Source: Candidatus Binataceae bacterium
Lineage (GTDB): Bacteria; Desulfobacterota; Binatia; Binatales; Binataceae
Direction of reading: 5' to 3'
Length of the DNA stretch: 64,000 bases
Assembly: GCA_035524095.1 (NCBI GenBank)
Contig: DATKPK010000134.1
Location: forward strand, 24,515-88,514
Positions 1,539-61,431 of the stretch are shown here, piece after piece. Position 1 is the first letter of the stretch. Each line of letters begins with the position of its first letter. A program made the position numbers and the translations under genes. Under the pieces are notes generated by a model. That model worked only from the letters and a program-made list of their open reading frames with translations, did no database searches and was not told the DNA's origin.

Positions 1539-2255
1539 CTAGCGGATCGCCTTGAAGAAGCGCGACCAACGGATCGGCACAAGCGAAGGACTGTCGCTGT
1601 CCCACGACCAGTAGATAAACAGCGCATGCCCCTCGATTTGGTTGAAGTTAACGAATCCCCAAAAGCGACTGTCATAGCTGTGATCGCGGTTGTCGCCCAT
1701 CATGAAGTATTCGCCCGCGGGAAGCGTCGTTGCGCTCAAAAAATCCCGCTGGTTGCCCGGCTGACGCTGGTCCTGCGGTACCTCGAAATGCGCATGAGGA
1801 TCATCCGCCGGCTTGCCATTCAGATAGACGATGGCGTCTTTGACCGCGATCGTATCACCCGGAATGGCAATCACTCGCTTGATAAAATCCTTGGTCTCGT
1901 CCTGTGGATAAACGAACACCACCACGTCACCGCGATGAACCGTGCCGAGAGTGAACAGGTAATGACCCCACGGGATCTCGTCGGCGAGCGGCGTCAAGCC
2001 GAAGAATGAATCGGGCAACCTGAAACCGTAAGCCAGCTTATTGACGATTATGTGATCACCAACCAGCAGCGTTGGCTCCATCGAACCCGACGGAATCTTG
2101 TAGGCCTGGACGAAAAAGGTGCGTAGGACGATCGCTAAAGCCAGCGCGACAAGGAATGCTTCGGTGTATTCCCGGGCTGCGGACTTGCGTGGTGGCGGCT
2201 CATCCGAATGTGGCGGTGAGACGGGCTTCGGTTGCTTGAGTAATGGCTCGGGCAC
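1539..2255 (-). CDS. lepB: Signal peptidase I
   Basis: N-terminal TM anchor followed by the SPase I boxes SGSMEPTL, RGDVVVF, KRVIAIPGDTI and GDNRDHSYDSRFWG. It sits directly downstream of lepA, the conserved lepA-lepB arrangement. Confidence 0.9.
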   Translation of the reverse strand: MPEPLLKQPKPVSPPHSDEPPPRKSAAREYTEAFLVALALAIVLRTFFVQAYKIPSGSMEPTLLVGDHIIVNKLAYGFRLPDSFFGLTPLADEIPWGHYLFTLGTVHRGDVVVFVYPQDETKDFIKRVIAIPGDTIAVKDAIVYLNGKPADDPHAHFEVPQDQRQPGNQRDFLSATTLPAGEYFMMGDNRDHSYDSRFWGFVNFNQIEGHALFIYWSWDSDSPSLVPIRWSRFFKAIR

Positions 2256-2263
2256 GCTTCCGG

Positions 2264-4066
2264 CTACTCCCCGACCTTGAGCAGGGCGAGAAACGCCTCC
2301 TGCGGAATTTCCACACGGCCCACCTGTTTCATCCGCCTTTTGCCTTCCTTCTGCTTCTCGAGCAGCTTCCGCTTACGCGTGATATCGCCGCCGTAGCACT
2401 TCGCGGTGACGTTCTTGCGCAGCGCTTTGACACTTTCCCGCGCGATAATCTTGGATCCGATAGCGGCTTGGATTGCGATTTCGAACATCTGGCGCGGGAT
2501 TAGTTCGCGCATCTTCTCACACAGCAGCCGCCCCCGCTCGTACGCCTTATCCCGATGGACGATAACCGACAGCGCATCGACGGTTTCGCCATTGATTCTG
2601 ATGTCCAATTTAACCAGATGCTGCGGACGGAAGTCCAGAAACTCGTAGTCAAGCGAGGCGTAACCGCGGCTCACCGATTTAAGCCGATCATAAAAGTCAA
2701 AGACGATTTCCCCGAGCGGAATCTCATAACTGAGGATCGCCCGCTGATGGCCCGAATAGCGCAAATCGCGCTGTATTCCTCTCCGTTCTTCGCATAGCGC
2801 CATCACCACTCCCAAGAACTCCTCGGGCACATGGATCGACGCGAGAATGAACGGCTCCTCTATTGCTTCAATCGTATTTTCATCCGGCAGATGGGCCGGA
2901 TTATCGACCATCAATGTTTCGACTCCAGTCGTCTTCACCCGATACGCGACTGTGGGCGCCGTTACGACGAGATTGAGTCCAAATTCGCGTTCAAGCCGTT
3001 CCTGCGCAATCTCCATATGCAGCAGGCCGAGAAAGCCTGCGCGAAACCCGAAACCGAGCGCTTGCGAGGTCTCCGGCTCGACGATCAGACTCGCGTCATT
3101 GAGCCGCAGCTTGTCGATCGCGTCGCGCAACTCACCGTACTGGTTCGCCTCGGTCGGATAGAGGCCGGCGAACACCATTGGCTTAAGTTCCTTGAACCCC
3201 GCTAGCGGCTCACTCGCGGGACGCTCAGCGTCGGTCATCGTATCGCCGACGCGCATATCGGCCACGGTCTTGATTCCCGCGACCACAAAACCGACCTCGC
3301 CCTGCCCTAGCGTCTCGGAAGGTTGCTCATGCGGCGTGAAATAGCCCAGTCGCATTAGTTCGCCCTCCTTGCCGGTACCGATCAGCCGGACCTTCATGCC
3401 ACGCCGCAGTTCGCCGTCAAAGACTCGCACCAGGCCGATCACGCCTTCGTAGGGGTCGTACCAGCTATCGAAGATGAGTGCGCGCGGCACGTTGCCGAGA
3501 CTTTGCTTGGGTGCCGGTATCCGTTTGACCACCGCTTCGAGTACTTCATTGACGCCAACCCCCTCTTTCGCGCTGGTCAGGATTGCGTCACTCGCATCGA
3601 GGCCGATCACCTGCTCGATCTGTTCCCGCGTGCGCTCGACGTCGGCCCCTGGCAGATCGATTTTATTGATTACCGGGATAATTTCGAGGCCGTGGTCGAG
3701 CGCCATATAGACATTCGCGAGGGTCTGCGCCTCGACTCCCTGGCTTGCGTCAACCACCAGCAATGCGCCGTCACAGGCCGCCAGGCTGCGCGAGACTTCA
3801 TAGGCGAAATCGACGTGCCCGGGCGTATCAATCAGGTTGAGGACGTAGGTTTTACCGTCACTTGCGGCGTAATTCAGCCGCACTGATCGCGCCTTGATTG
3901 TAATCCCGCGCTCGCGTTCGAGGTCCATCGAATCGAGGAATTGCTCGCGCGATTCACGCTTTGAAAGCGCACCCGTGCGCTCAAGCAGACGATCGGCCAG
4001 CGTCGACTTGCCGTGATCGATATGAGCGATTATTGAGAAATTACGAATCAGTTCGCGTGATGTCAT
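2264..4066 (-). CDS. lepA: Elongation factor 4 (LepA)
   Basis: 600 aa. N-terminal GTPase motif [20 protein letters not shown] and a DTPGHVDF switch. The length and the C-terminal LepA domain are typical. Confidence 0.95.
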
Positions 4067-4226
4067 CTAACCCCGGGCGCATACAGAGCGATTGCAACCG
4101 CTCACCATAACACATCAGCCGCGACCGCGATGGCATTTTGTTCGCAAAGTACGCGAACACTTGCGGACGCTCGCCACCCTCTGCCACTGCCTCAACTCCC
4201 AGCCCGCTTGTGCCCCTGATTGTCAA

Positions 4227-5165
4227 TTATGCGCCTTTGGCGAAGCGATCCTGGAAAAAACGATAGGTCTGCGCCAAACCAGTCGCCAACGAGACATCCG
4301 GCCGCCAGTTCAACTCCCTGGCCGCCCTCGCCGGCGATATTACCGAACGCATCTGTTCGCCCGGACGCGCGGGACCATATTCCGCCGCGCGGCTAGTGCC
4401 CGCCGCTTTCGCGAGGGTGCGAAAAAGCTGATTGACGCTGGTTTCGACTCCAGTGCCAATATTGAATGCCCCTGAAACCGGCGAGGCTACTGCGGCCAGG
4501 TTCGCCCGCACAACATCGCCGACATAAACGTAATCGCGCGTCTGCTCACCGTCGCCATAGATCGTGACCGGCTTGTCTTCCAGCATTCGCCCGCAGAAAA
4601 TCGCCACCACCCCGGCTTCGCCATGCGGATCCTGGCGCGGCCCATAAACGTTGGCGTAACGTAGCGCAACATAATCGATCTCGTACTGCGCCTTATAGAA
4701 AAACAAGTAGGCTTCGGTAGCAAATTTCGCCACCCCGTATGGGCTGATCGGCCGCCGCGGATGATCCTCATTGCAGGGAAATTGCTCCTGCTCGCCATAG
4801 ATCGCGCCGCCCGTGGACGAGAAAATCACCCGCTTCAACCCATGCTGGCGCGCTGCCTCGATCAGGTTCAGAAAGCCAACCAGATTGACTTGGGCATCGA
4901 ACGGCGGATCGGCCACCGACCGCCGCACATCCATCTGCGCCGCCAGATGGATAATCGCCTCCGGCCGTTCCTGCGCGATAATCTGCTGAACCTTTGCCGC
5001 GTCACGCAGGTCCGCTTCGTAAAAACGCGCCTTTGGATTCACCTGTGCACGTTTGCCCGCCGATAGATCGTCCAGCACGGCGACTTCGCTGCGTCCTTCG
5101 GCGATCAATGCGTCCACCGTATTCGAGCCGATAAAGCCCGCTCCACCGGTTACCAATAACCGCAT
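4227..5165 (-). CDS. NAD-dependent epimerase/dehydratase of the extended SDR family; candidate UDP-glucuronate 4-epimerase or UDP-glucuronate decarboxylase
   Basis: MRLLVTGGAGFIGSN Rossmann start and a YxxxK catalytic motif (PYGVAKFATE). 312 aa, GalE/UXS-like. It lies immediately downstream of ugd in the same operon. Confidence 0.85.
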   Translation of the reverse strand: MRLLVTGGAGFIGSNTVDALIAEGRSEVAVLDDLSAGKRAQVNPKARFYEADLRDAAKVQQIIAQERPEAIIHLAAQMDVRRSVADPPFDAQVNLVGFLNLIEAARQHGLKRVIFSSTGGAIYGEQEQFPCNEDHPRRPISPYGVAKFATEAYLFFYKAQYEIDYVALRYANVYGPRQDPHGEAGVVAIFCGRMLEDKPVTIYGDGEQTRDYVYVGDVVRANLAAVASPVSGAFNIGTGVETSVNQLFRTLAKAAGTSRAAEYGPARPGEQMRSVISPARAARELNWRPDVSLATGLAQTYRFFQDRFAKGA

Positions 5166-5216
5166 AGTTCTCTATTTCCCGCTCCACACCAAAGCTGCTT
5201 GCGCCCGGCGCGAACG

Positions 5217-6524
5217 CTAGATCGGCCGCCTGCCTATCGAATAATAACGGAATTCCAGCGCCTTCATCAGTGCGGGATCATATAGGTTGCGGCCATCAAA
5301 TATCACCGGCTCTTTGAGCTCAGCGCGAATCCGCTGAAAATTCGGATGACGAAATTCATTCCATTCGGTGAGGATCAGCAATGCGTCGGCGCCAGCCAAG
5401 GCCTCGTAGTTCGTCCGATGATAGCTGATACGATCGCCGAAAGTCCGCCGCGCATTTTCCAGCGCTTCAGGGTCATGCACCTGCACCCGTGCGCCTGCAT
5501 TCAATAGCTCCTCGATCACCACCAGCGACGGCGCCTCGCGCATATCATCCGTGCGCGGCTTGAACGCGAGTCCCCACACGGCAAAGGTCCGGCCTTTCAG
5601 GTTGTTCCCGAAATGCTGCTTGACGCGATCAACCAAGAGACCCTTCTGCTCGCGATTAACCTCGTCCGTCGCCTTGAGCAGCGTAAAATCCAGCTTGTTA
5701 TCGGCCGCACTATGCACCAGGGCTTGCACATCCTTGGGAAAGCACGACCCGCCATAGCCGACGCCGGGAAACAGGAACTGCGATCCGATTCGCCGATCGG
5801 TGCCCATCCCGCGCCGCACGTCGTTGATTTCTGCGCCGACCGCCTCGCATAGATTCGCCATCTGATTGATAAATGAGATTCGCATCGCGAGCATTGCGTT
5901 CGACGCGTACTTGGTCAGCTCCGCCGAGCGCGGATGCATCACCAGGACTGGATTATCGGTGCGTACAAACGCCGCGTGAATCTCACGCAAAATCGCGGTC
6001 GCCTGTTCGCTGGTACTCCCGATCACTACGCGATCAGGCCGCATAAAGTCCTCGATCGCTGAACCTTCCTTGAGGAATTCCGGCACTGAACAGGCGTCAA
6101 TCCGATGGTCCGCGACGCGCTCGACCAGCGCACGAATCTTGTCGTTAGTACCGACCGGCACCGTACTTTTGACTGCAATTATATGATAGCCGTTGGCCGC
6201 TTTGGCGATACTCTCCGCCGCCGCCAGCACACCCGTCAGATCCGCCGCACCGGTCGCGCTCATCGGTGTACCGACGGCGATGAACGATACCATCGAACGC
6301 TGCACCGCCGGGGCTAGTTCGGTCGTAAAGCTGAGCCGTCCGTCCTTGACGTTGCGCCGCACCAGTTCTTCGAGACCCGGCTCATAAATCGGCACCTCGC
6401 CGCGGCTTAGCTGCTCAATTCGCCGGTGGTCGATATCGACGCAGATGACCTCATTGCCGCTCTCGGCGAAGCAGGTGCCGCTGACCAGCCCCACATATCC
6501 TGTACCCACCACTGCGATGTTCAT
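5217..6524 (-). CDS. ugd: UDP-glucose 6-dehydrogenase
   Basis: MNIAVVGTGYVGLVSGTCFAESGNEVICVDID N-terminus and a catalytic Cys region GGSCFPKD. 435 aa. Confidence 0.9.
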   Translation of the reverse strand: MNIAVVGTGYVGLVSGTCFAESGNEVICVDIDHRRIEQLSRGEVPIYEPGLEELVRRNVKDGRLSFTTELAPAVQRSMVSFIAVGTPMSATGAADLTGVLAAAESIAKAANGYHIIAVKSTVPVGTNDKIRALVERVADHRIDACSVPEFLKEGSAIEDFMRPDRVVIGSTSEQATAILREIHAAFVRTDNPVLVMHPRSAELTKYASNAMLAMRISFINQMANLCEAVGAEINDVRRGMGTDRRIGSQFLFPGVGYGGSCFPKDVQALVHSAADNKLDFTLLKATDEVNREQKGLLVDRVKQHFGNNLKGRTFAVWGLAFKPRTDDMREAPSLVVIEELLNAGARVQVHDPEALENARRTFGDRISYHRTNYEALAGADALLILTEWNEFRHPNFQRIRAELKEPVIFDGRNLYDPALMKALEFRYYSIGRRPI

Positions 6525-6531
6525 CTACGAA

Positions 6532-7470
6532 TTAAAATTCCTCCTTGATCACGTAAATCGGCTTTCTCTGCGATTCGTGATAAGTCCGGGTAATCATTTC
6601 CCCAATTAGCCCCAGGCTGACGAACTGCACCCCAACCACCACCAGCAACACCGCCAGCAGGAGCGCCGGCCGGTTGCTCAACGGCCAGCCCAAGATCACC
6701 TTTTCAAAGACCAGCACGGCAGTCCATATGCTGCCAAACCCCGAAAGGAACACGCCGATCGCCCCGAACACCTGGATCGGCCGAGTCGAATAGCCCGACA
6801 GGAATTGCACCGTCAGCAGATCGAGCACCGTTCGCACGATGCGACCGGGGCCATACTTCGACTTGCCCGTACGCCGCGGACGAAAGCTGACCTGCTGCTC
6901 CGCGATTCTTGCCCCCAATTCCGATGCAATCACTGGCACGAACCGATGCATCTCGCCATAAAGCATCAGGCGCCGCGCGATATCGCCGCGATACGCCTTG
7001 AGCGTGCAGCCATAGTCATGCAGTTCCACGCCGGTCGCGCGCGAAATCATCGTATTTGCGATAATCGACGGCAGCCGCCGCGATATCCCGGCGTTACGCC
7101 AACGCTCGGTGCGCCAGCCGCTGACCAGATCGTAGCCCTCGTCGAGCTTCGCCAGCAGGACTGGAATATCCGCCGGATTGTTCTCGCCGTCCGCGTCAAT
7201 CGCGACGACGATGTCGCCCTGCGTATGCTGAAAGCCGCACGCCAATGCTGCCGTCTGGCCGGAGTTGCGCGCGAGTCGAATCACCCGGACGTGCTCATCC
7301 TCGGCCGCGATTTCACGCAGCACCGCCTCCCCGCCGTCGCCGCTGCCATCATCCACGAACAGAATCTCGTATGACCGCTTTAGCGGCTCGAGCACGTGGG
7401 TCAGTTCGCGATGCACAGGCGCCAGATTGTCCCGCTCGTTATAGAGCGGAACAACTATTGAGAGGTCCAT
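6532..7470 (-). CDS. Family 2 glycosyltransferase with C-terminal TM helices; polyprenyl-phosphate sugar transferase of the ArnC/RgtE/DPM1 type
   Basis: LSIVVPLYNERDNL, FVDDGSGDGG and DADGENNP (DxD) motifs, with two C-terminal TM segments. The ORF extends to 7533, but the ATG at 7468-7470 (MDLSIVV) gives a canonical GT2 start and only a short overlap with the upstream kinase. Confidence 0.85.
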   Translation of the reverse strand: MDLSIVVPLYNERDNLAPVHRELTHVLEPLKRSYEILFVDDGSGDGGEAVLREIAAEDEHVRVIRLARNSGQTAALACGFQHTQGDIVVAIDADGENNPADIPVLLAKLDEGYDLVSGWRTERWRNAGISRRLPSIIANTMISRATGVELHDYGCTLKAYRGDIARRLMLYGEMHRFVPVIASELGARIAEQQVSFRPRRTGKSKYGPGRIVRTVLDLLTVQFLSGYSTRPIQVFGAIGVFLSGFGSIWTAVLVFEKVILGWPLSNRPALLLAVLLVVVGVQFVSLGLIGEMITRTYHESQRKPIYVIKEEF

Positions 7471-8378
7471 CGTGAATGATGGGAATCCGTCAGCTCGATA
7501 AAGGCACGGTAGCGCGCGTCGATATCTTCCCACGCCAGTCTCGTCAGCCCATCGATCGAGAAGCGCTCGACCGCGAATGACGCCATCACCGAGCCGTAAA
7601 CCACCGCCGTCCGTAGCGCCGACTCGCTTAGTCCACCACGGCGCGCGATGAACCCCATAAACGCGCCAGCAAACGTGTCGCCAGCACCGGTCGGATCGAC
7701 CACCTCTTCCAGCGGATAGGCCGGCACGGCAAACATTCCGTCCTGGCTGAACTGCAAGACGCCGTATTCGCCGCGTTTGATTAGAACTGTACGCGGCCCC
7801 ATCCTGAGCAGCGCGCGCCCGGCCTTCACCAGGTTATGCTCGCCGCTCAACATCCGTGCCTCTTCGTCGTTAAGCGTGAGAATACCAATCCGCGGCAACA
7901 GCGCGACTAGCGCTCGCCGCTCATTGTTGATCCATAGATTCATCGTGTCAGCGGCGACCACCTTGGGACTAGCGACCTGCGCTAACACGTGAGCCTGCAA
8001 CTCAGGTGCGATATTCGCCAGAAACACATAGTCGGAACGGCGCTGATCCGGCAGCAGGTCAGGCGAGAAGTCAGCAAACACATTCAATGCGACGCTGACC
8101 GTGTCACGGATATTCATGTCCTCGTGATAGCGGCCATGCCATCGAAAGGTCGGACCGTCGCGCCGCGTCACACCACGGATATCGATGGCGCGCTCGGCAA
8201 AAATCCGCACGTCCTCGTCGCGAAAATCCGTGCCAATCGCCGCCACGATACTGACCGGCGAAAAAAAACGCGCCGCCAGGGCGAAATAGCTCACCGACCC
8301 GCCGATCGCCGACTCCGCCTTGCCGTGCGGCGTCTCGATCGTGTCATAGGCCATGCTGCCGACTACCAGAATACTCAT
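7455..8378 (-). CDS. PfkB-family carbohydrate kinase
   Basis: Ribokinase-like fold with the anion-hole/ATP motif DPTGAGDTFAGAF near the C-terminus. 307 aa. It overlaps the start of the GT2 gene, which suggests co-transcription. Confidence 0.8.
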   Translation of the reverse strand: MSILVVGSMAYDTIETPHGKAESAIGGSVSYFALAARFFSPVSIVAAIGTDFRDEDVRIFAERAIDIRGVTRRDGPTFRWHGRYHEDMNIRDTVSVALNVFADFSPDLLPDQRRSDYVFLANIAPELQAHVLAQVASPKVVAADTMNLWINNERRALVALLPRIGILTLNDEEARMLSGEHNLVKAGRALLRMGPRTVLIKRGEYGVLQFSQDGMFAVPAYPLEEVVDPTGAGDTFAGAFMGFIARRGGLSESALRTAVVYGSVMASFAVERFSIDGLTRLAWEDIDARYRAFIELTDSHHSRWTSQ

Positions 8379-8465
8379 TTATTAGAATTCAACCTGTCTG
8401 CGGCAATGCCGCATCTAAATCTAGTCTATTTTGATTATTTCGCGAGGCGACTTATCACTGCCGGA

Positions 8466-9326
8466 TTACTTCAGATACTTACCGATAAGCGGCCGCAACT
8501 TCGCAACCGTTTCCGGCGGGAGCATCGATTGATCAGTGATAATCGCGTTAGCCAGCGCGTCGGCGCAGCCGCAACTTCGCACCCGCGCACCGACCGCCCG
8601 TGCCAGATTCACCACCGCACGCTGCGCTTTTTCGACATTGAGCCGCATCACCCGCAGGATTTCGCCGATATCAACCGCCGCGACGCTTTCATGCCAGCAG
8701 TCGTAATCGGTCACCAGCGTCAGCACTGCGTAACAAAGCTCGGCCTCGCGTGCGAGCCGCGCCTCCTGCATCGCCGTCATACTGATTACGTCTACATCCC
8801 AGCTGCGATACAGCCGCGATTCGGCGCGCGTCGAAAACTGCGGCCCCTCGATACATAGATAGGTTCCACCTTCGTGGACTTGCGCGCCGGTCGCGCGGCT
8901 CGCCTCCACCAGCGCACCACTCAAGCCCGCACAGACCGGATCCGCCAGCGACACGTGCCCTACAATACCGTCGCCGAAAAAGCTCGCCCTTCGTGCATAG
9001 GTATGATCGATGAACTGGTCTGTCACTACGAGGTCGCCCGGCGCGATCGTCTCTTTCATGCTGCCGGCCGTGCTCACCGAAACCAGATGATCAACGCCGA
9101 GCTGCTTCATGCCATGGATATTCGCCCGATAGTTCAGCTCGCTTGGCAATATCCGATGACCCCGGCCGTGGCGGGAAAGAAAGACTACTTCAGTATTCCC
9201 CACCGATCCTCGATAATAATTATCCGACGGCGGCCCAAACGGCGTTTCGAGCGTGATCGGCTCGACCCGTTCGAGTCCCTCGATTTGATAGAAACCGCTG
9301 CCGCCGATTACACCAAGTACTGCCAT
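8466..9326 (-). CDS. mtnP: S-methyl-5-prime-thioadenosine phosphorylase / purine nucleoside phosphorylase
   Basis: MAVLGVIGGSGFYQIEGL N-terminus. 286 aa, PNP/MTAP family. Confidence 0.85.
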   Translation of the reverse strand: MAVLGVIGGSGFYQIEGLERVEPITLETPFGPPSDNYYRGSVGNTEVVFLSRHGRGHRILPSELNYRANIHGMKQLGVDHLVSVSTAGSMKETIAPGDLVVTDQFIDHTYARRASFFGDGIVGHVSLADPVCAGLSGALVEASRATGAQVHEGGTYLCIEGPQFSTRAESRLYRSWDVDVISMTAMQEARLAREAELCYAVLTLVTDYDCWHESVAAVDIGEILRVMRLNVEKAQRAVVNLARAVGARVRSCGCADALANAIITDQSMLPPETVAKLRPLIGKYLK

Positions 9327-9410
9327 CGGATCTAAGCTATCGCTCCATTCTCATTGTCTGGCTTCTTGCATCTGCGCGGACGCCTAACGACCTACCCGCC
9401 GCATCCCTGG

Positions 9411-10535
9411 TTACTCAACCGTCCCTTCGACTACTGGCGTCGGTGGTTCTGCCCGTCCACCACGGTCGTGCTCTGCAAACAATTGGCCGCACGCCGCCGC
9501 GATATCGCGTCCGCGACTTTCCCGGATCGTGGCGGTCAAGCTACCCCGATGGAGCAACGCTTGAAAGGCTTCGACTCGCGCTCGCGGACTCGGCGCAAAT
9601 GGCGCTTCTGGAAACGGATTGAAGAAGATCAGGTTGACCTTCGCCCGCAAAGGACCAAGCATCCGCGCCAGCCGCCGCGCCTCATTATCCGAATCATTGA
9701 CGCCATCGAGCATCACATACTCGAACATGATCCGCCTACGCCGCGCGAGCGGAAGGTTCCGGCACGCGGCAATTAACTCATCGAGCGGATAACGCCGGTT
9801 GATTGGCGCGATCCGATCACGCAATTCATCGGTGGTCGCGTGCAGCGACACTGCCAGGTTCACCCGAAACTCGGATAGCAGCCGTTCCATCATCGGAATC
9901 AGGCCGACCGTCGAGACCGTAATTCGCCGCGGCGAGATTCCCATCCCCCACGGCGCCGTCATAATCGTCAATGCCCGCGCCAGCCGCTGATAATTGGCGA
10001 GCGGCTCGCCCATACCCATGAAGACATAGTTGGTCAGCGCCTCGCCTTCGGCCAGGTAACGCCGCGCCGCGAGAATCTGCCCAAGAATCTCATTGGCGGC
10101 AAGATTCCGCCGCAATCCCATTCGCGCGGTCGCGCAGAATTCGCAGGCCATCGCGCAGCCCGCCTGACTCGAGATACACAGCGTCGTGCGATCGTCCGCC
10201 GGGATGATCACACTCTCGATTGCCTCGGCGCCTGCCTGTAGCAGCAGCTTGCGCGTACCATCGGCCGAACGCGCAATTTCGATCACGTTCGCATCGACTG
10301 CATCGAGCTGCCAATTCGCCGCCAGCCAAGTACGAAGCCCCGCCGGCAGATCACTCATCGCCTCGAACGATTCGGCGCCGCGCTGCCACAACCAGCCCAT
10401 AATCTGCCGCGCGCGGAACGGACGCTCGCCGATTTCCCCGAGCGTTTGCTCGGCTTCGGCGAGCGTCAGGTCGCGAATCACGCGCTTCACGCCCGCCACT
10501 GGGGCTGGAATCTCAATCGTCGCCGCCGCATTCAC
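9411..10535 (-). CDS. rlmN: 23S rRNA/tRNA adenine-C2 methyltransferase RlmN (radical SAM)
   Basis: Radical SAM cluster motif CAMACEFCAT and the conserved RlmN framework. 374 aa. Confidence 0.9.
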   Translation of the reverse strand: MNAAATIEIPAPVAGVKRVIRDLTLAEAEQTLGEIGERPFRARQIMGWLWQRGAESFEAMSDLPAGLRTWLAANWQLDAVDANVIEIARSADGTRKLLLQAGAEAIESVIIPADDRTTLCISSQAGCAMACEFCATARMGLRRNLAANEILGQILAARRYLAEGEALTNYVFMGMGEPLANYQRLARALTIMTAPWGMGISPRRITVSTVGLIPMMERLLSEFRVNLAVSLHATTDELRDRIAPINRRYPLDELIAACRNLPLARRRRIMFEYVMLDGVNDSDNEARRLARMLGPLRAKVNLIFFNPFPEAPFAPSPRARVEAFQALLHRGSLTATIRESRGRDIAAACGQLFAEHDRGGRAEPPTPVVEGTVE

Positions 10536-10630
10536 GCCATCTATTGTAGAGGAAAATCCTCCGCACCCAAGCTATTCCGTTCAATAGGTTGTGGCTTGGA
10601 TAGCTGCCACCAGATGCTGTTGGCAGCGCG

Positions 10631-11356
10631 CTACGCGCGCTTCAGTTCCGCGAACCGCCATAGACCCAGCTCCGGCTGCTGCATGTCGAGACGCGAATCG
10701 TTCAACAGCCGCTCAGGTTGTGGCAGGTCAAACGGCGCGATCGTCAGATTCACCGGCCGAAAGCTTCCCGGCCAGATATCGTGATTGAAGGTGACACGCG
10801 GTGAAGTTGTGGCCAGCAGATATTTCGCGCCGGTTGCCGCGAGGTTGCTCAGCGCCGACTTGATTTGCCGGTTCGACAGATGGATCAGGCAATGACGGCA
10901 GAGTACAGCGTCGGCGGCCGGTAACCGATCGCGGGTGATATCGGCCACCATAAAGGTGCGTTCGGCCGAAGCGTAAAATTCGATATTGCGCCGGATCAAC
11001 TCGTCGACCACGTCGATCCCGCAATACTGAACATCTCCCAAATCGACCGTTTTGAGCCAGTTGAAGTCGCCACAGCCGGCATCCAGCAGCGTCTGTACGT
11101 GAAGCTCAGCAAGGATCGTGGGCAGTTGCCCCCGAATCGCCGCGCTGAGTTCGAGCGTCGATCCCGCACCGGAAACCGATTCGTCTGATCTCCACAAGTT
11201 ATTTCGATAGATCTCGCTGAACGTGCGCCGGTTCGATCGCATTTCCAGCCATCGGATATGCCACCGCGCGTAGGCTTCGTCGCCGAGCACCCGCCGCATG
11301 ATCGCGCCGAGGTCTGGTCTTGCTCGCGGCCACCAGCCTTTTGCATCCTCCCCCAT
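10631..11356 (-). CDS. Class I SAM-dependent methyltransferase
   Basis: LLDAGCGDFNWL SAM-binding motif I. 241 aa. Confidence 0.7.
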   Translation of the reverse strand: MGEDAKGWWPRARPDLGAIMRRVLGDEAYARWHIRWLEMRSNRRTFSEIYRNNLWRSDESVSGAGSTLELSAAIRGQLPTILAELHVQTLLDAGCGDFNWLKTVDLGDVQYCGIDVVDELIRRNIEFYASAERTFMVADITRDRLPAADAVLCRHCLIHLSNRQIKSALSNLAATGAKYLLATTSPRVTFNHDIWPGSFRPVNLTIAPFDLPQPERLLNDSRLDMQQPELGLWRFAELKRA

Positions 11357-11416
11357 CTTCCTTACTCACCCAGATTGAATCGCCCGGTGTGCCGTTCGCC
11401 AGTCCCTCCCTCGCGC

Positions 11417-12469
11417 TCAGCGAAAGCCTTGGATCGTCACGACTGCGGTCGCACCCATCCGGAACGGAAACCGCTCATCGTTCGGCCCCATGATCACGCG
11501 TACGGGGAAGCGCTGCGACAGCCGAACCCAGTTGAGCGTCGGTTCGATCTGCGGTAGCCCGGCCACGGTCGCGCCATTGTCCTGATAAAGCGCCCATCCA
11601 GTGCCTTGTACGGTGCCGCGAAACGGATGGTTCGGGTAACTCCGCAAATAAACCTGCGCAGTCATCCCGGGCAGAATATGCTCCAGGAAATCCTCGCGAA
11701 AATTCGCCAGCACGTACCAGTTACGATTGTCGACCAGACTCAGTACTTCGCGGCCTTCGTTGCCGTATTGTCCCACCGCGATATTAAGGTTGGTGACATA
11801 CGCGTCGAAGGGTGCTTTGACATAGCAATACTCGACATTCAAGTTCGCATCGTAGACCGCTGCCTCCGCCGCCTTGCGCCGGGCATTTATATCGCCATAC
11901 TGCCCCAACTCGTTGGTTGAGCGCTGGACCTCGCTATGGGCGCTCGCGATTGCCGCCTCGTCTGCCTGCACGCGGCTGCGCGCATTGAAAACGTCGTTGG
12001 CGGTAACGAAATGGCGTGCGAGCAGCGGTTCGATCCGTTGCAGGTATTGCCGGTCGTAGCTCTCCTCGGCCATCAACTGCTGTTGGCGCGATCCGGCTGA
12101 GCGCACCGCGTCCTCTAACGCCCGAATCTGCAGATTGGTCAGCATCAGGTTGGCTTGGGCATTATCGAGCGCCGATTGATAAGGCCGCGGATCGACCACG
12201 AACAGGAGTTGTCCTTGCGCCACATGTTGATTGTCGTGAATCGGCAATTGCACGATCGGGCCGCTCACATGTGGCGCCACGCCCACGATATTCGCCCGCA
12301 CATAAGCGTCATCGGTCCGCGGAAAGATATAGTAGAGCCGCGTGACATAGGCTCCCACCACCAGCGCCGCGATTACGATCGCAATCCCTAGCAGGCGCCC
12401 GGCCACCACCTGAGCGCTGATTCGCGGCCTGGTGGTTGTGATAGCCGGCGGTTCAGCGATAGCGGCCAC
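11417..12469 (-). CDS. HlyD/EmrA-family efflux membrane fusion protein
   Basis: N-terminal TM anchor, then a conserved HlyD signature RTDDAYVRANIVGVAPHVSGPIV...VVDPRPYQSALDNAQANL, a coiled-coil middle region and a C-terminal beta-barrel. Confidence 0.85.
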   Translation of the reverse strand: MAAIAEPPAITTTRPRISAQVVAGRLLGIAIVIAALVVGAYVTRLYYIFPRTDDAYVRANIVGVAPHVSGPIVQLPIHDNQHVAQGQLLFVVDPRPYQSALDNAQANLMLTNLQIRALEDAVRSAGSRQQQLMAEESYDRQYLQRIEPLLARHFVTANDVFNARSRVQADEAAIASAHSEVQRSTNELGQYGDINARRKAAEAAVYDANLNVEYCYVKAPFDAYVTNLNIAVGQYGNEGREVLSLVDNRNWYVLANFREDFLEHILPGMTAQVYLRSYPNHPFRGTVQGTGWALYQDNGATVAGLPQIEPTLNWVRLSQRFPVRVIMGPNDERFPFRMGATAVVTIQGFR

Positions 12470-19789: not shown

Positions 19790-20584
19790 TTGATGGTCAC
19801 CTCTCCCCAATTTCAGGCCGGCGTATTGGGTGCCGTCCAGGGCCTCACCGAGTTTCTGCCGGTCTCCAGTTCAGCTCATCTGGTCATCGTACCGTGGCTC
19901 TTCAAGTGGACCGATCCAGGCCTCGCTTTCGACGTCGTGCTGCATCTCGGCACCCTCGTAGCGCTATTGATCTATTACTGGCGCGAATGGCTGACGATGG
20001 CCGCGTCGCCGTTCAACGGTGACCTCAAGAATCGTCGCCTGTTGATCCTCCTTATCGTCGCCTCGGTACCCGGCGCGATAATCGGGGTTTTGCTTGAAAA
20101 ACAGGCCGAAACGGTCTTCCGCTCGCCGCTTCTGATCGCCGTGACGCTCGGCCTGATGGGCCTCGTGCTATGGTTCTTCGACTGGATCGCTCCCCAACGG
20201 CGCAAGATCGATAACCTGACCATCAAGGATGCCTTGATCGTCGGCTTCTGCCAGGCGCTCGCGATCATCCCGGGCGTCTCACGCTCTGGCGCAACCATCA
20301 CGATGGCCCGTATCCTCCACCTCGAGCGCGAAGACGCAGCCAATTTCTCCTTTCTGATGGCGACGCCAATCATCGCGGGCGCCGGCCTGAAGGAATCTGT
20401 TCACCTCGTCCATAATGGGATCAATGCCGCTCTTGCTGTCGGCTTCCTGGCCTCCTTCGGCTTTGGCATCGTCGCTATTGCTTTCTTGATCCAATACGTG
20501 CGGAGCCACAGTTATCGTTCCTTCGGATGGTACCGCCTGGCCGCCGCCATCTTCGTCGCCGCGGTTTATATGCTGCGTCATTAG
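19790..20584 (+). CDS. uppP: Undecaprenyl-diphosphatase
   Basis: GLTEFLPVSSSAHL motif and the PGVSRSGATI motif. 264 aa, 8 TM. A strong SD GGGAGGA lies 7 nt upstream of the ATG. Confidence 0.9.
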   Translation: MMVTSPQFQAGVLGAVQGLTEFLPVSSSAHLVIVPWLFKWTDPGLAFDVVLHLGTLVALLIYYWREWLTMAASPFNGDLKNRRLLILLIVASVPGAIIGVLLEKQAETVFRSPLLIAVTLGLMGLVLWFFDWIAPQRRKIDNLTIKDALIVGFCQALAIIPGVSRSGATITMARILHLEREDAANFSFLMATPIIAGAGLKESVHLVHNGINAALAVGFLASFGFGIVAIAFLIQYVRSHSYRSFGWYRLAAAIFVAAVYMLRH

Positions 20585-20682: not shown

Positions 20683-22173
20683 ATGACCATCTTGTCGGAC
20701 GATCCCGGACAGTCTGAGCCTCGGGACCCTGTTACGGAGGCCAATACTGATCCGGAGAGGCTAAGGAATCCAGGGCCAGCGAGCCACCGCAACGGATGGT
20801 GGATGCTGCTCGCGATTGCTCTCGTGACAATCATCGTCCGGCTGGCGTTGTTGCCAGACCGCGATGGCACGCGGGCACTCGACCCCAGTGGCGACTCGCT
20901 TGCTTACGTCGAATTAGCCGAGGGCTTGCGTCACGGATGCGGCTTCGCGCGGCTCCACGACGGCAAGTGCCTTAACCCCGAAATCGACCGCACTCCCGGC
21001 TATCCCCTCTTCCTCGCAACGTTCTCAAATTTTCGCGCCGCACTGATCGTGCAGGTTTTGCTCGCCGGAGTGATCGTTTTCGCCGCCGGCGCCTTCGTCT
21101 ATCTGAACTGGGGTATCGGCGCGGCCCTCGTGGCCTCGACCTTTATCGCCCTCGACCTGCCTAGCATCGTTTACGCCGCCGAGTTGATGACCGAGACGCT
21201 ATTCACGGCCTGCTTCGCGCTCGCCACCCTTCTCGCCCTTTACGCATTGAACGGCAACCCACGAGTGCAACGATTGCTCATCCCGATGCTCGGGGCATCC
21301 GCGCTGCTGAGTTTCGGCCTGCTGACTCGCCCGATTGGCGAATTCGGCTTGGCCGTACCCGCGATTCTGGTGCTGCTCGTCAGCTCGGCCCCTTGGCCGC
21401 AGCGGCTCGGCCTCCAGCTTCTATTACTCTCGCTTCCACTTCTGACGATTGCCGGGTGGTCGCTCCGCAACCATGCTGTGGCTGGCGTCGCCGCTCCTTC
21501 GAGCATCGGCGCCTCTAACTTTTTCTACTATCGGGCAGGCGGGACACTCGCCTTCTCGTCGGGCAGCGGATGGCTTGGCGCAGTCAACCAGTTGGGGACC
21601 CGCCCGGAAAACCACCTAACCAGCGATGCCTTCGCGATTATTGAACAGCACCCCCTGGCTTTTGCTGAAATGACCACATGGAGCCTGCTCTTTGTCGCTT
21701 TGGCGCCGGTGCGAACGCCCTTGGATCACATTCTGGGCGTGCAGCAGTCCTTCCCCATCCAGGATCCGGGTTCAATCCGCCTGCGTGCGGATCTCCGGAC
21801 TCTTGCAACCTCGCCTCGCGCCGCCCTCGTCACGATCTATCGCAATGAATTCGACGGTTCACCCGCCATCACAGCCCTGACCGGTCTCCAAATGTTTTCG
21901 GTAATCCTTCTCTGGATTGGAGTGATCGCCGGGTTGAGCTTCGCCTCGACCCGTTCGTATCGCGGTGCCTGTATCCTGATTCTCGCGGCCACTGCCTTCG
22001 TCCTGATGCTACTCGCGGCCGGCCCCGAGGGTACTGCCCGCTTGCGCATCCCAACCTTGCCCTTTCTCGCGATGGTCGCCGGCGTCGGCTGGACTCGCCT
22101 CGCTACACGCCGGCGCGCGCAGCGACGACGGCGGAGGATTCAGCCGTCCTCCCTACGCGCCTCCCCAACCTGA
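20683..22173 (+). CDS. GT-C fold membrane glycosyltransferase, PMT_2 / ArnT-like family
   Basis: Polytopic membrane protein. The first periplasmic loop carries DSLAYVELAEGLRHGCGFARLH ... EIDRTPGYPLFLA, typical of the PMT_2 (GT39/GT83-like) family. It is Arg-rich at the C-terminus. Confidence 0.75.
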   Translation: MTILSDDPGQSEPRDPVTEANTDPERLRNPGPASHRNGWWMLLAIALVTIIVRLALLPDRDGTRALDPSGDSLAYVELAEGLRHGCGFARLHDGKCLNPEIDRTPGYPLFLATFSNFRAALIVQVLLAGVIVFAAGAFVYLNWGIGAALVASTFIALDLPSIVYAAELMTETLFTACFALATLLALYALNGNPRVQRLLIPMLGASALLSFGLLTRPIGEFGLAVPAILVLLVSSAPWPQRLGLQLLLLSLPLLTIAGWSLRNHAVAGVAAPSSIGASNFFYYRAGGTLAFSSGSGWLGAVNQLGTRPENHLTSDAFAIIEQHPLAFAEMTTWSLLFVALAPVRTPLDHILGVQQSFPIQDPGSIRLRADLRTLATSPRAALVTIYRNEFDGSPAITALTGLQMFSVILLWIGVIAGLSFASTRSYRGACILILAATAFVLMLLAAGPEGTARLRIPTLPFLAMVAGVGWTRLATRRRAQRRRRRIQPSSLRASPT

Positions 22174-22337
22174 AAACGCGAGCCCCCAGCCGGTGCGTTC
22201 CGCATCGGCTGGGGGCTCGCGCAAACTAAGAGAGGGGGCCGGAACATCACGGCGTTCGGGCCCTGATGCTCCGGCCCCTCCAATCCCCGGAAACGGTGCG
22301 GGACGGCTATGCCGTCCCGCACCGTTTCCGACTCCCG

Positions 22338-22604
22338 CTATTTTACCGGCGTACGATTGCCCGCAGTGTCGTACGAGAACACCTCGGCGCCCTCGTCCCG
22401 CGTCTTCTTATGCGTGCCGTCACAGTACGGCTTGTTCTTCGACAATCCGCATGCGCAGATCCAGACCGGCAATTCGGTCCCTTCTGCAATCTCGTACGGC
22501 CCCGTCTCTTCATGCTTTACCAGTCGCGCCATGACTTCCCTCGCTCTTTTATGGGCGCCCGGAAGTCCCTTCCGTGCGCACGTTGTAGCGCGATCAAAGA
22601 CCAC
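22338..22604 (-). CDS. CDGSH-type iron-sulfur domain protein
   Basis: [18 protein letters not shown] matches the C-x-C-x2-(S/T)-x3-P-x-C-D-G-(S/A/T)-H signature. 88 aa. Confidence 0.8.
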
Positions 22605-22721
22605 CGATGCCTCTCAAGTCAAATTCTCCCGCACCATGCATTCGACCGACGCCACCGCTATCCTTACGCCGATGGCTCTTCACGCATCCCCGGCCTTCTC
22701 TGCTTCACCTGAACCGATCGT

Positions 22722-24548
22722 ATGAAGACCAATCCGCTTCACGGGAAACCAACTAACGCGACCTTGCCCGTAACGGCCGATCAGCCGCTAAATGCGGCCG
22801 TGGAGTCCGCCAATCCTCCAACGCAATCTGTTGCTTCTGATGAAACTTATGCCCTCGACCGCCGCCTCGCGCTCCGTCTCGCGACCCTCACAAGTCCGGC
22901 CGTCGCGATCCCGCTGATACTGGTCGTCGGTGCGGTTCTCTTTCTCGTAAATCTAGGCGGCGCACCTATTTATACCAAGGGCGAGGCTCGTGAGGCCGTC
23001 ACCGTATTTGATATCGCGCATGGGGGCGGCGTCATCCTCCCGATGCGCGCTGGGGTCGAAATCCCTTCAAAACCCTTGATGATGCACTGGCTGGCCGCAC
23101 TCATCTCGCTCATCGCTGGTGGCGTCTCCGCCTGGACCGTACGGTTGCCTTCGGCGCTCCTCGCCATCGCAGGCGCCCTCGCCAGCTATCTCTATGTCCG
23201 CCGGCTTTTCGAGGCCCGCAGCGCTCTCCTCGCCGCCCTTATCCTCCTGACTTCAATCCAATATCTTCAGGCTGGCACCGGTTCGCGCGTCGATATGACG
23301 CTGACCTTCTTTCTCACCATCGCCTTCTTTGAATTTCTGATGGTCGCCGAAGGTCTTCGCTCCCCGCCGATCTTCTTTTACCTCGCTGTCTCTATGGCCG
23401 TCCTTACCAAAGGTCCCGTCGGCGCTCTCCTGCCCGGGATCGTCGCCTTCATCTGGATCATCCTGTGTTGGCGATGGTCCTTGCTGCGCCGGATCCAACT
23501 CCTGCGCGGCGCCTTGATCCTCGGCGTCCTGGGCGGCGGATGGTATCTCCTCGCCATCCTGACCGGCGGCGAAGCCTTCATCCATAAGCAGATTCTCGCC
23601 GAGAACCTTTACCGTCTCACCGGCCATGCGGGCGTCAACGAGGGCCACGCGCACCCCTTCTACTATGAGGACGCCGCCCTGCTCGCCGGCTTCATGCCAT
23701 GGACGCCCGTCGCTCTGATTGCCCTCGTTCAGGCGATTCGCCGCCGCCGCCGCCTTGAGCCACGCCTCGGCTATTTGCTCGTATGGTTTCTGACTGTGCT
23801 GATTTTCTACAATCTGCCGGAAAGCAAACGCGGAGTTTATCTTCTTGCCTCATATCCCGCGGTCGCGACGATTATCGCTCTCTACCTCGGTGACGCAATT
23901 ACTTACCCCGACCTTACCGCTCGAGTCAGCCGTGTGATTGCCCTCATCATCGGCTTGGCCTTCGTCCTTATTGGTGGCGCTGCTGCGATCGGCCTGGGTT
24001 TGCTCTATATCTCACCCGCCACTCTCAACGACATCCTCGCGCCGATCCGAATCATCGTCGCCGAATTGCCAACCGCACTCCGGAGCAACGTAACGCACTA
24101 TCTCCCAATCGCGATTGCACTACCCATCATCGTGCTGGCGCTCGGAGTTTTTCTGCTCCGCGCTCGCCCGCGCGCCGACAAGATCGTCTTCGCGATCACC
24201 GGCGCGATGGCCGCAATCGCTCTCGCTGTCAGCCTGATTATCCAGCCTGCCCTTGGCAACAGCCTGACGGTCAAGGATTTCGCGGTCTCCGTGAATCAAA
24301 CTGCGGCTGGGATGCCGATCGGCTACTTCGGTACCGTCGATTATGCCTTCGCGTTCTACAGCGGTCGCGACCTGGATTTGATTAACGACCGCGACGTGAA
24401 CCCGCCCGCCTACATCGTTTGCTCAGATGACGGCCTGCGCCTGATGCCTCCCGCGATGCGCTCCCACTACACCATCGTTCTGACCAGCCATCCAACCGAG
24501 CTCGACGGCACCGGCGTCATGTATCTGCTCCACCACAACGCAACTTAA
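22722..24548 (+). CDS. ArnT-like (GT83/PMT_2) polyprenyl-phosphate-sugar-dependent glycosyltransferase with C-terminal periplasmic domain
   Basis: N-terminal ArnT-like signature GAPIYTKGEAREAVTVFDI...ILPMRAGVEIPSKPLMMHWLAA, and TKGPVGALLPG. About 13 TM segments, then a roughly 100-aa soluble C-terminus. Confidence 0.8.
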   Translation: MKTNPLHGKPTNATLPVTADQPLNAAVESANPPTQSVASDETYALDRRLALRLATLTSPAVAIPLILVVGAVLFLVNLGGAPIYTKGEAREAVTVFDIAHGGGVILPMRAGVEIPSKPLMMHWLAALISLIAGGVSAWTVRLPSALLAIAGALASYLYVRRLFEARSALLAALILLTSIQYLQAGTGSRVDMTLTFFLTIAFFEFLMVAEGLRSPPIFFYLAVSMAVLTKGPVGALLPGIVAFIWIILCWRWSLLRRIQLLRGALILGVLGGGWYLLAILTGGEAFIHKQILAENLYRLTGHAGVNEGHAHPFYYEDAALLAGFMPWTPVALIALVQAIRRRRRLEPRLGYLLVWFLTVLIFYNLPESKRGVYLLASYPAVATIIALYLGDAITYPDLTARVSRVIALIIGLAFVLIGGAAAIGLGLLYISPATLNDILAPIRIIVAELPTALRSNVTHYLPIAIALPIIVLALGVFLLRARPRADKIVFAITGAMAAIALAVSLIIQPALGNSLTVKDFAVSVNQTAAGMPIGYFGTVDYAFAFYSGRDLDLINDRDVNPPAYIVCSDDGLRLMPPAMRSHYTIVLTSHPTELDGTGVMYLLHHNAT

Positions 24549-61376: not shown

Positions 61377-61431
61377 GACTCGACCTCTAGAGGGCGCATA
61401 CTACCACCGCGACTGTCGATTCAAAAGCGCG

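Follow-up and report, generated by a model that had tools for sequence, protein, structure and literature searches.

The 64-kb stretch of DNA analysed here (the window, in whose positions coordinates are given unless another locus is named) belongs to a Candidatus Binataceae bacterium. Binatota is an abundant phylum of soils and sponges; to our knowledge, it has no cultured member and its envelope chemistry is without any description. Between positions 4227 and 8378, the window carries four adjoining genes, encoding a short-chain dehydrogenase/reductase of the extended type (SDR), a UDP-glucose dehydrogenase (Ugd), a family 2 glycosyltransferase (GT2) and a PfkB-family kinase, which an earlier note had read as an operon for the synthesis of a lipid-linked acidic or pentose sugar donor. 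The cluster is predicted to belong to a known class, in which nucleotide-sugar enzymes accompany an undecaprenyl-phosphate (Und-P) sugar synthase of the ArnC/GtrB type. Within Binatia, the same operon occurs with and without a UDP-xylose synthase (UXS), with matching changes in the GT2, and this suggests, short of proof, that the lipid-linked donor switches between a pentose and a uronate.

Genes of the cluster

All four open reading frames (ORFs) were recovered by an ORF check and by profile searches, and all lie on the minus strand: PfkB (7455-8378, 307 aa; Pfam PfkB, 8e-24), GT2 (6532-7470, 312 aa; Pfam Glycos_transf_2, 3e-31; a GT-A domain and two C-terminal transmembrane helices), Ugd (5217-6524, 435 aa; three UDPG_MGDP_dh Pfam domains) and SDR (4227-5165, 312 aa; Pfam Epimerase, 3e-65). 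The identical gene order was found again in at least 15 independent contigs, and these genes are therefore not chance ORFs. The mechanical GT2 ORF, which begins at GTG 7533 (333 aa), was shortened to the ATG at 7470 (MDLSIVVP), since homologue lengths (312 aa in 118 of the 120 closest homologues, and also in a database protein that is 100% identical) agree with the gene calls on identical contigs, which open at MDLSIVVP, at the ATG equivalent to 7470. The overlap of PfkB with the GT2 start, reported in the earlier note, is thus real, but it extends over 16 nt (7455-7470, ATGGACCTCTCAATAG) instead of the 79 nt that the ORF list implied. This 16-nt overlap is kept in the Binataceae loci L004, L168 and L169, and in other Binatia the two genes stand 4-138 nt apart. 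The start of Ugd follows the GT2 stop at a distance of 7 nt, 51 nt separate Ugd from the SDR, and a gap of 160 nt lies between the SDR and LepA. It should be noted that the sugar genes sit inside a long, tight run of housekeeping genes (1539-10535; RlmN, MTAP, PfkB ... LepA, LepB; MTAP, S-methyl-5'-thioadenosine phosphorylase). A promoter and terminator scan of 2000-11500 gave no usable operon boundaries, with 6 promoter-like sites (4.3 ± 2.5 expected) and 4 terminator-like sites (9.2 expected).

The GT2 is predicted to be a bona fide polyprenyl-phosphate glycosyltransferase of the ArnC/GtrB type, in line with the earlier note, which had placed it, with its C-terminal helices, in the ArnC/RgtE/DPM1 type. 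Its best matches in the PDB are three ArnC structures (194-195 bits, 35% identity over residues 3-310), ahead of Synechocystis GtrB (134-137 bits, 29% identity) and archaeal DPMS (61 bits), and the alignment to ArnC and GtrB extends through residue 310. The ArnC residues that coordinate the nucleotide, the metal, the lipid phosphate and the sugar are available from a 2025 cryo-EM and simulation study, in which the first Asp of the DXD motif is the proposed catalytic base and the sugar position is modelled, no donor-sugar-bound structure being cited there (PMC12690121). Twelve of the 13 ArnC residues checked are identical in the GT2 (P15, Y17, E19, D48, N77, D100, D102, R128, R131, R137, S141 and R205, in ArnC numbering), the sole non-identical one being Q104, which corresponds to E96. 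Indeed, D92-A-D94-G-E-N aligns with ArnC 100-DADLQN-105 and supplies the DXD motif, the Arg/Ser set for the lipid phosphate and donor diphosphate is present (R120, R123, R131, S135 and R199 for ArnC R128, R131, R137, S141 and R205), and two C-terminal hydrophobic segments (234-256 and 263-294) account for the transmembrane helices. Every feature of the class that could be checked was found in this protein, whose predicted activity is the transfer of a sugar from an NDP-sugar to Und-P.

The GT2 is not ArnC proper, as judged from its score on the ArnC equivalog NF007986 (213.6 bits, cut-off 529) and from the lack of any association with ArnA, ArnB and ArnD. In architecture it matches ArnC (PmrF) of the Arn pathway of Escherichia coli and Salmonella: the two proteins are 35% identical along their full length and have the DXD motif, the Arg/Ser set and the two helices in common; that pathway likewise depends on UDP-glucuronate (UDP-GlcA) made by Ugd, and an ArnT-like GT-C protein is encoded in the window. 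The differences are the Glu in place of Q104, the low equivalog score, and the partner enzyme, a predicted 4-epimerase where the Arn pathway has an oxidative decarboxylase. No ArnA formyltransferase, ArnB or ArnD was found among the scanned window ORFs or in any Binatia locus, and no ArnE/F was seen among the scanned window ORFs. As the ArnA formyltransferase and ArnB aminotransferase are not found among these ORFs, the route is not the classical one to 4-amino-4-deoxy-L-arabinose (Ara4N), as the earlier note had also held. Similarity to GtrB, the Und-P-glucose synthase (Synechocystis sll0501; phage and Shigella Gtr systems), concerns fold and topology at 29% identity, but GtrB is less similar to this GT2 than ArnC is, and no GtrA flippase or GtrV-type partner adjoins the gene.

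Ugd, assigned in the earlier note to the making of UDP-GlcA, can be regarded with good reason as a UDP-glucose 6-dehydrogenase, a prediction that its domains and scores bear out. It scores 452 bits on NCBIfam TIGR03026 (cut-off 190) and 533 bits on the TuaD-type UDP-glucose 6-dehydrogenase model, and the catalytic-Cys motif GGSCFPKD can be read in its translation. The three-domain architecture, a family score above the cut-off and the catalytic Cys expected of such an enzyme are thus all present. Ugd comes after GT2 in every Binatia locus long enough to show its position.

The SDR is predicted to be a UDP-sugar 4-epimerase of the short GalE clade. Its PDB scores are highest with Thermotoga maritima GalE (318 bits), 7ys8 (281 bits), which we take from its sequence to be Mycobacterium tuberculosis Rv3634c (GalE1), and Thermus thermophilus GalE (279 bits), its identity to these three short GalEs being 48-51% (48% for Rv3634c). 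Scores are weaker with BcUGAepi (6zl6/6zla) and MoeE5 (6kv9) (132 bits), human UXS1 (115 bits) and E. coli GalE (110 bits). The NAD site GGAGFIG occupies residues 7-13, and the triad T118/Y143/K147 aligns with S124/Y149/K153 in E. coli GalE and S121/Y146/K150 in Rv3634c; fold, triad and nearest relatives are thus all those of the short clade. On TIGR01179, the model for classical GalE, the SDR scores 206 bits, below the cut-off of 262, and it can therefore not be counted among the classical long enzymes. At the gatekeeper position (Y299 in E. coli) it carries Ser274, as do all short GalEs, which would predict a roomy sugar pocket, and both this Ser and the YGPRQDPHGEAGVVAIF loop recur in the three short GalEs named above.

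Two other identities had been proposed for the SDR in the earlier note, a decarboxylase and a UDP-GlcA 4-epimerase, and neither was borne out. As a UXS-type decarboxylase it fails on score (115 bits with human UXS1, versus 357 bits for the UXS of the Binatia locus L015, described below) and on identity to the UXS of its relatives (27-29%), in which genuine UXS genes adjoin Ugd. It does not fall in the UDP-GlcA 4-epimerase clade (BcUGAepi/MoeE5/GlaKP/LpsL) either, with 132 bits to BcUGAepi and MoeE5 versus 318 to T. maritima GalE. At the position of BcUGAepi P85, UDP-GlcA epimerases carry Pro, GalE-active enzymes Lys and UDP-xylose 4-epimerases (UXE) and UXS Ala, and UDP-GlcA epimerases also possess a Ser/Thr carboxylate network and Arg185 (PMC12338863). 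The SDR carries Met78 at the corresponding E. coli GalE K84 position, hence neither Pro, Lys nor Ala, and G119-G120 instead of Ser/Thr after the catalytic T118; in this mapping, the numbering of the aligned E. coli GalE sequence agrees at K84, S124 and Y149. Since short GalEs are broad in specificity, activity on UDP-GlcA or UDP-xylose (UDP-Xyl) is possible. Half of an outcome that the earlier note had named as speaking against its proposal was thus found, namely the grouping of the SDR with GalE, here in the short clade.

The operon in Binatia, with and without UXS

In Binataceae (the window, which is also locus L001, and L004, L155, L168 and L169), the gene order is (NDK)-RlmN-MTAP-PfkB-GT2-Ugd-SDR-LepA-LepB. 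GT2-Ugd was found in these five loci, and the SDR directly follows Ugd, with no UXS, in all four that extend far enough. Other Binatia provided 8 complete and 2 partial loci with GT2-Ugd-UXS-SDR2, where genes overlap by 4-8 nt and where the extra gene between Ugd and SDR2 encodes 312 aa. This order is seen in L086 (positions 5754-9871 of that locus; GCA_046757725.1), L087 (5745-9871, on a 3.4-Mb contig), L089-L092, L096 and L098; in L086 and L087, start-stop overlaps of 4-8 nt join GT2 to Ugd and Ugd to UXS, and SDR2 of L086 occupies 8945-9871. The UXS of L015 reaches 357 bits with human UXS1, which marks it as a genuine UDP-xylose synthase, and the extra gene of the remaining UXS-type loci is 74-80% identical to the UXS of L086. 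These operons would imply a route from UDP-glucose through UDP-GlcA and UDP-Xyl to UDP-L-arabinose (UDP-L-Ara) in UXS-bearing Binatia. Stereochemically, UDP-L-arabinose is the non-aminated version of the ArnC donor.

The SDR of the window is the orthologue of the epimerase that stands behind UXS in other Binatia. It is 50-57% identical to the UXS-linked SDR2, a divergence that matches that of the flanking orthologues in the same comparison (GT2 53%, PfkB 54-56%, Ugd 59%), and the two form one group against the GalE of T. maritima, T. thermophilus and M. tuberculosis in 94% of neighbour-joining bootstraps. In their pocket, window-type and UXS-linked epimerases agree wherever they align with E. 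coli K84, N179, R231, Y233 and Y299, and differ at T118 (Ser in the latter), L74 (His) and Y203 (Asn or His).

In L015 (12245-14166 of that locus), UXS is kept and the slot of the epimerase is filled by a classical long GalE (TIGR01179, 452 bits) that shares 33% identity with the SDR of the window. This GalE carries Ala at the E. coli K84 position, as reported for UDP-xylose 4-epimerases (PMC12338863). Locus L015 has the appearance of a non-orthologous replacement of the epimerase in situ, with its function presumably retained. That the slot was refilled after gene replacement argues that GT2, Ugd, UXS where present, and the epimerase act together, and GT2-Ugd-epimerase may be regarded as a conserved sugar core in Binatia.

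No UXS was found in the 64-kb window or in the further Binataceae sequence covered, about 50 kb in all; this absence applies to these sequences and not to whole Binataceae genomes. A search with the L015 UXS gave, in its 120 best matches (down to 72% identity), proteins named for Binatia but none named for Binataceae, and none of them comes from the long Binataceae contigs that carry GT2 homologues. The supplements of the Binatota genomics paper mention neither UXS, Ugd nor lipopolysaccharide.

Changes in the GT2 accompany this absence. When 121 Binataceae-type GT2 sequences were compared with 13 of the UXS type, 14 positions proved to be fixed differently between the two sets, and four of them adjoin functional residues of ArnC. 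Binataceae have S70 where the UXS type has Phe (ArnC Y78, beside N77), E96 where it has Gln (ArnC Q104, a metal ligand of the DXD motif), F196 where it has His (ArnC H202, beside R205), and an inserted W124 in the R123-R131 loop, which has no counterpart in the UXS type. At all four sites the UXS-type GT2 keeps the residue of ArnC or a similar one (Phe for Y78), and Phe, Gln and His also stand at the three substituted sites in a consensus drawn from 29 GT2 homologues of diverse lineages. Because the UXS-type GT2 and this consensus keep ArnC-like residues, the donor-side surroundings of the GT2 appear to have been remodelled in exactly the lineage that lacks UXS.

The lipid-linked donor and its competing readings

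The explanation that we favour, with a probability of about 0.45, is that Ugd and the 4-epimerase feed an Und-P-sugar synthase, and that GT2-Ugd-SDR is an envelope-glycan module set within a longer housekeeping operon, with a uronate, galacturonate (GalA), as the favoured product. From its family membership, Ugd would oxidise UDP-glucose to UDP-glucuronate. The SDR, whose family and triad are clear, would then invert C4 of a UDP-sugar, the substrate being suggested by the context. The GT2, held by its two C-terminal helices and equipped with the DXD/Arg/Ser machinery that it shares with ArnC, would join Und-P to C1 of the UDP-sugar and so yield, at the cytoplasmic side of the membrane, an Und-P-monosaccharide. 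Once this is flipped, its sugar may be passed to an envelope acceptor by a GT-C enzyme, for which the protein encoded at 22722-24548 is a candidate. In the window, the sugar route would thus run from UDP-GlcA to UDP-GalA and Und-P-GalA, or from UDP-GlcA directly to Und-P-GlcA. A donor that has not been decarboxylated is preferred because UXS is absent at the locus and because four fixed GT2 substitutions lie near the active site. Of the acidic or pentose donor proposed in the earlier note, it is thus the uronate alternative that we tentatively retain; the pentose idea draws support from the sister operon GT2-Ugd-UXS-epimerase, although the SDR itself is no decarboxylase.

Rhizobium makes lipid-linked GalA for its lipid A and core with RgtE, LpsL, Exo5 and RgtA-D. 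Compared by description, this system follows the same logic as the reading that we favour, from Ugd to a C4 epimerase, a GT2 making polyprenyl-phosphate-GalA and a GT-C. It differs in its epimerase, of the LpsL/GlaKP/BcUGAepi clade where that of the window is of the short GalE clade, and in the arrangement of the genes, those of the window standing in one operon with the GT-C unlinked.

Several points weigh against a dedicated uronate module. The closest characterised relatives of the SDR work on UDP-glucose/galactose and UDP-GalNAc, with UDP-GlcA activity not known for them; the substrates of Rv3634c, in particular, are UDP-Glc/Gal and UDP-GalNAc (PMC5389812). The SDR has Met78 where UDP-GlcA epimerases carry Pro, and none of the four Binataceae-specific changes of the GT2 adds a positive charge that would be an obvious partner for a carboxylate. 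Adjacency weighs little here, as the unrelated housekeeping flanks are packed just as tightly. At the 80 genome loci with GT2 homologues (39-55% identity, many phyla; neighbours identified by tblastn), Ugd, SDR, PfkB and MTAP occur together at one only (L015), and Ugd and SDRs occur more loosely in a Gemmatimonadota exopolysaccharide cluster (L081); beyond these two, no linkage of GT2 homologues with Ugd or an epimerase was seen in the 80 genomes. The candidate GT-C lies 14 kb from the cluster, on the opposite strand, and is not syntenic in relatives. A UXS may possibly be present elsewhere in Binataceae genomes. Finally, the organism is uncultured and the GT2 and SDR activities are predicted ones.

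This last-but-one point leads to a pentose route, which we consider somewhat doubtful. With a UXS encoded elsewhere in the genome, the SDR would be a UDP-xylose 4-epimerase and the GT2 would make Und-P-L-arabinopyranose or Und-P-xylose, a non-aminated analogue of the ArnC product. It is supported by the orthologous SDR2, which in other Binatia comes directly after UXS at no fewer than 8 loci, by the classical GalE that fills the L015 slot with the Ala reported for UDP-xylose 4-epimerases, and by ArnC, the closest characterised GT2, which takes a pentose of L-arabino configuration. It is opposed by the lack of UXS in the window and the other Binataceae sequence covered, by the 51-nt gap between Ugd and SDR, from which UXS is cleanly absent, by changes in the GT2 active-site surroundings precisely in the UXS-less lineage and, weakly, by the missing Binataceae names among the best UXS homologues. 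UDP-Xyl and UDP-L-Ara are synthesised by Uxs1 and Uxe in Sinorhizobium meliloti and by UXS and UXE in plants. The Ugd-UXS-4-epimerase set of the sister lineage gives that same nucleotide-sugar route, but the window has no UXS, and Binatia couple the route to a polyprenyl-phosphate glycosyltransferase. A full-text literature search found no description of such a coupling, or of Und-P-Xyl or Und-P-L-Ara donors.

Both lineages would be accommodated if Binatia possessed a non-aminated counterpart of the Ara4N system, making Und-P-L-arabinopyranose through Ugd, UXS and a 4-epimerase, and if the loss of UXS with the four GT2 substitutions had switched the donor to GalA in Binataceae; as a complete scenario, this is unlikely. 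Such a toggle, if true, would amount to a one-gene evolutionary switch of envelope charge, from a neutral pentose (L-Ara) to a uronic acid (GalA). The operons with and without UXS constitute a natural experiment on the choice of donor sugar by polyprenyl-phosphate glycosyltransferases. If the pentose/uronate reading is true, a new donor would join the known bacterial list of Ara4N, GalA, GalN, GlcN, Glc, GlcNAc and Man; if false, the GT2 would be one more uncharacterised ArnC/GtrB homologue beside common nucleotide-sugar genes. The cluster, with three expressible soluble or membrane enzymes, offers a concrete entry to the envelope chemistry of Binatota.

A further reading, which we find doubtful, involves no dedicated pathway at all but inherited synteny. 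The SDR would then be a general UDP-Glc/Gal (UDP-GlcNAc/GalNAc) 4-epimerase, Ugd would serve other polysaccharides, and the GT2 would charge Und-P with one of the common hexoses or HexNAcs (Glc, GlcNAc, Gal or GalNAc), in the manner of the GtrB, PpgS or FlmF2 systems. The SDR is indeed about 50% identical to three short GalEs and shares their loop and Ser gatekeeper, the block packs unrelated genes closely together (RlmN, MTAP, LepA, LepB), and GT2 homologues elsewhere have heterogeneous neighbours, including GT4, SDRs, asparagine synthase (AsnB), methyltransferases and LPG_synthase_TM/flippase-like proteins. In M. tuberculosis, a short-GalE-type epimerase presumably feeds the polyprenyl-phosphate-GalNAc synthase PpgS, which also counts for this reading; there, GalE1 (Rv3634c), PpgS (Rv3631) and Rv3779 act through polyprenyl-phosphate-GalNAc to give galactosamine on arabinogalactan. 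The window resembles this system in the pairing of a short GalE (48% identity, 281 bits) with a polyprenyl-phosphate glycosyltransferase and a GT-C; it differs in its GT2, which is far from PpgS (37.7 bits on the PpgS model versus 213.6 for ArnC), and Ugd and UXS are not known to play a role in the mycobacterial system. Against functional independence stands the co-variation of the sugar genes in Binatia (UXS present or absent, the epimerase swapped in L015, the GT2 changes), which it can hardly explain, as well as the 4-8 nt overlaps of GT2 with Ugd and Ugd with UXS in L086 and L087.

Neighbouring genes and other features of the window

The PfkB protein shows the motifs IGGS, LNDEEA and DPTGAGD, corresponding to the GG lid, the NxxE motif and the DTxGAGD anion hole of its family. 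No NCBIfam equivalog model was reached, and its listed homologues bear generic names throughout, with no fusion among them. The one solved structure close to it is 3kd6 (320 bits), an uncharacterised PfkB-family carbohydrate kinase and presumably a Chlorobium tepidum structural-genomics entry, of which a full-text literature search found no mention. In Binatia, PfkB always follows MTAP (in the window 8466-9326, minus strand; TIGR01694, 289.5 bits, cut-off 274.85), a context gene outside the module, and often stands with NDK-RlmN. In relatives, Mdh-SucC-SucD-NDK lie ahead of the block; in the window, a methyltransferase and an HlyD-like gene (10631-12469) occupy this place instead.

The earlier note had suggested that PfkB contributes an additional sugar-phosphate step, a view that finds no support here. 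The block (NDK)-RlmN-MTAP-PfkB-GT2-Ugd-(UXS)-SDR-LepA-LepB is tightly packed throughout, SDR2 overlapping LepA by 4 nt in L086, and gene overlap is no evidence for a role of PfkB because unrelated genes of the block are equally tight. PfkB and MTAP are absent beside 79 of the 80 GT2 homologue loci of the genome scan, the exception, L015, carrying the Binatia block, and at all metagenome GT2 loci outside that block. A PfkB-GT2 fusion was sought with GT2 homologues grouped into 50%-identity clusters; of the 150 best cluster representatives, about 20 have at least 490 aa, and none of the 10 long ones scanned contains such a fusion, their partners being TPR, LPG_synthase_TM (flippase-like), PAP2 or GT2 duplications. 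PfkB is adjacent to and probably co-transcribed with GT2, it most likely stands outside the sugar-loading pathway, and we treat PfkB and MTAP as neighbours from nucleoside or methylthioadenosine salvage that contribute no pathway steps.

The methylthioxylose (MTX) cluster of M. tuberculosis combines MTAP and a GalE-like epimerase with two transferases, the GT2 MtxS and the GT-C MtxT. By analogy with it, MTAP and PfkB might contribute to a lipid-linked 5-methylthio-pentose or another sugar derived from ribose-1-phosphate, in line with the adjacency of MTAP, PfkB and GT2 in all Binatia loci, the 16-nt PfkB/GT2 overlap in Binataceae and the synthesis of the lipid donor of MTX by a GT2, Rv0539 (mtxS) (PMC12088412), but this is highly improbable given that the operon holds a complete UDP-sugar route (Ugd, with or without UXS, and an epimerase), that a nucleotidyltransferase for the activation of a sugar-1-phosphate is lacking, that PfkB beside NDK and MTAP fits nucleoside salvage, and that PfkB and MTAP are missing from the 79 genome and the metagenome GT2 loci outside the block, with no fusions.

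Among the other genes of the window, that at 22722-24548 (plus strand) encodes a 608-aa ArnT-like GT-C protein (Pfam PMT_2, 2e-15; NCBIfam ArnT, 93 bits, cut-off 567), whose only PDB match is ArnT 5ezm (58 bits over residues 64-555). Upstream of two putative GT-C genes, of which this is one, lies that of the undecaprenyl-diphosphate phosphatase UppP/BacA (19790-20584, plus strand; TIGR00753, 223 bits, cut-off 217.5; Pfam BacA, 3.5e-80), an enzyme that recycles the carrier lipid. The 608-aa protein is a plausible candidate for a periplasmic user of the lipid-linked sugar and, with UppP, a plausible downstream partner of the cluster. The earlier note had placed matching GT-C transferases 12 kb away; the ArnT-like protein is real, but its link to the cluster is not seen in relatives. 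No GT-C was found within 3-10 kb of the cluster, where the flanks end with the contigs, in any other Binatia locus, those of Binataceae included, and the 14-kb proximity therefore carries little weight; likewise, no ArnT-like GT-C was detected beside GT2 homologues in the 80 genome loci. The other putative GT-C, a 496-aa protein with many hydrophobic segments (20683-22173), could not be confirmed as such, as it has no Pfam, NCBIfam or PDB sequence match. Between these two large membrane-protein genes is a 548-nt gap (22174-22721), whose sole ORF (22266-22712, 148 aa) was considered as a GtrA/ArnE-like flippase and rejected, its product being Arg-rich and non-hydrophobic with no Pfam match; it is probably non-coding.

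Further away, riboflavin genes (ribBA and ribD) occupy 60165-62610. Rfam at the gathering threshold gave no family over the whole 64 kb, the FMN riboswitch included, and a tRNA scan gave none. All 2-kb bins have a negative GC skew (-0.04 to -0.23), the cumulative curve is monotonic, and most called ORFs are on the minus strand; no signature of a replication origin or terminus was seen by GC skew in the window. A Tad/type IV pilus-like secretion set lies at 38377-43399; it comprises two T2SSF proteins and two ATPases, one of the T2SSE type and the other ParA/MinD-like. The gene at 53139-54224 encodes a protein homologous to the lysyl-transferase domain at the C-terminus of MprF (LPG_synthase_C, 3.6e-36). 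This domain stands alone here, with no membrane flippase domain attached, and the protein is possibly another modifier of envelope charge.

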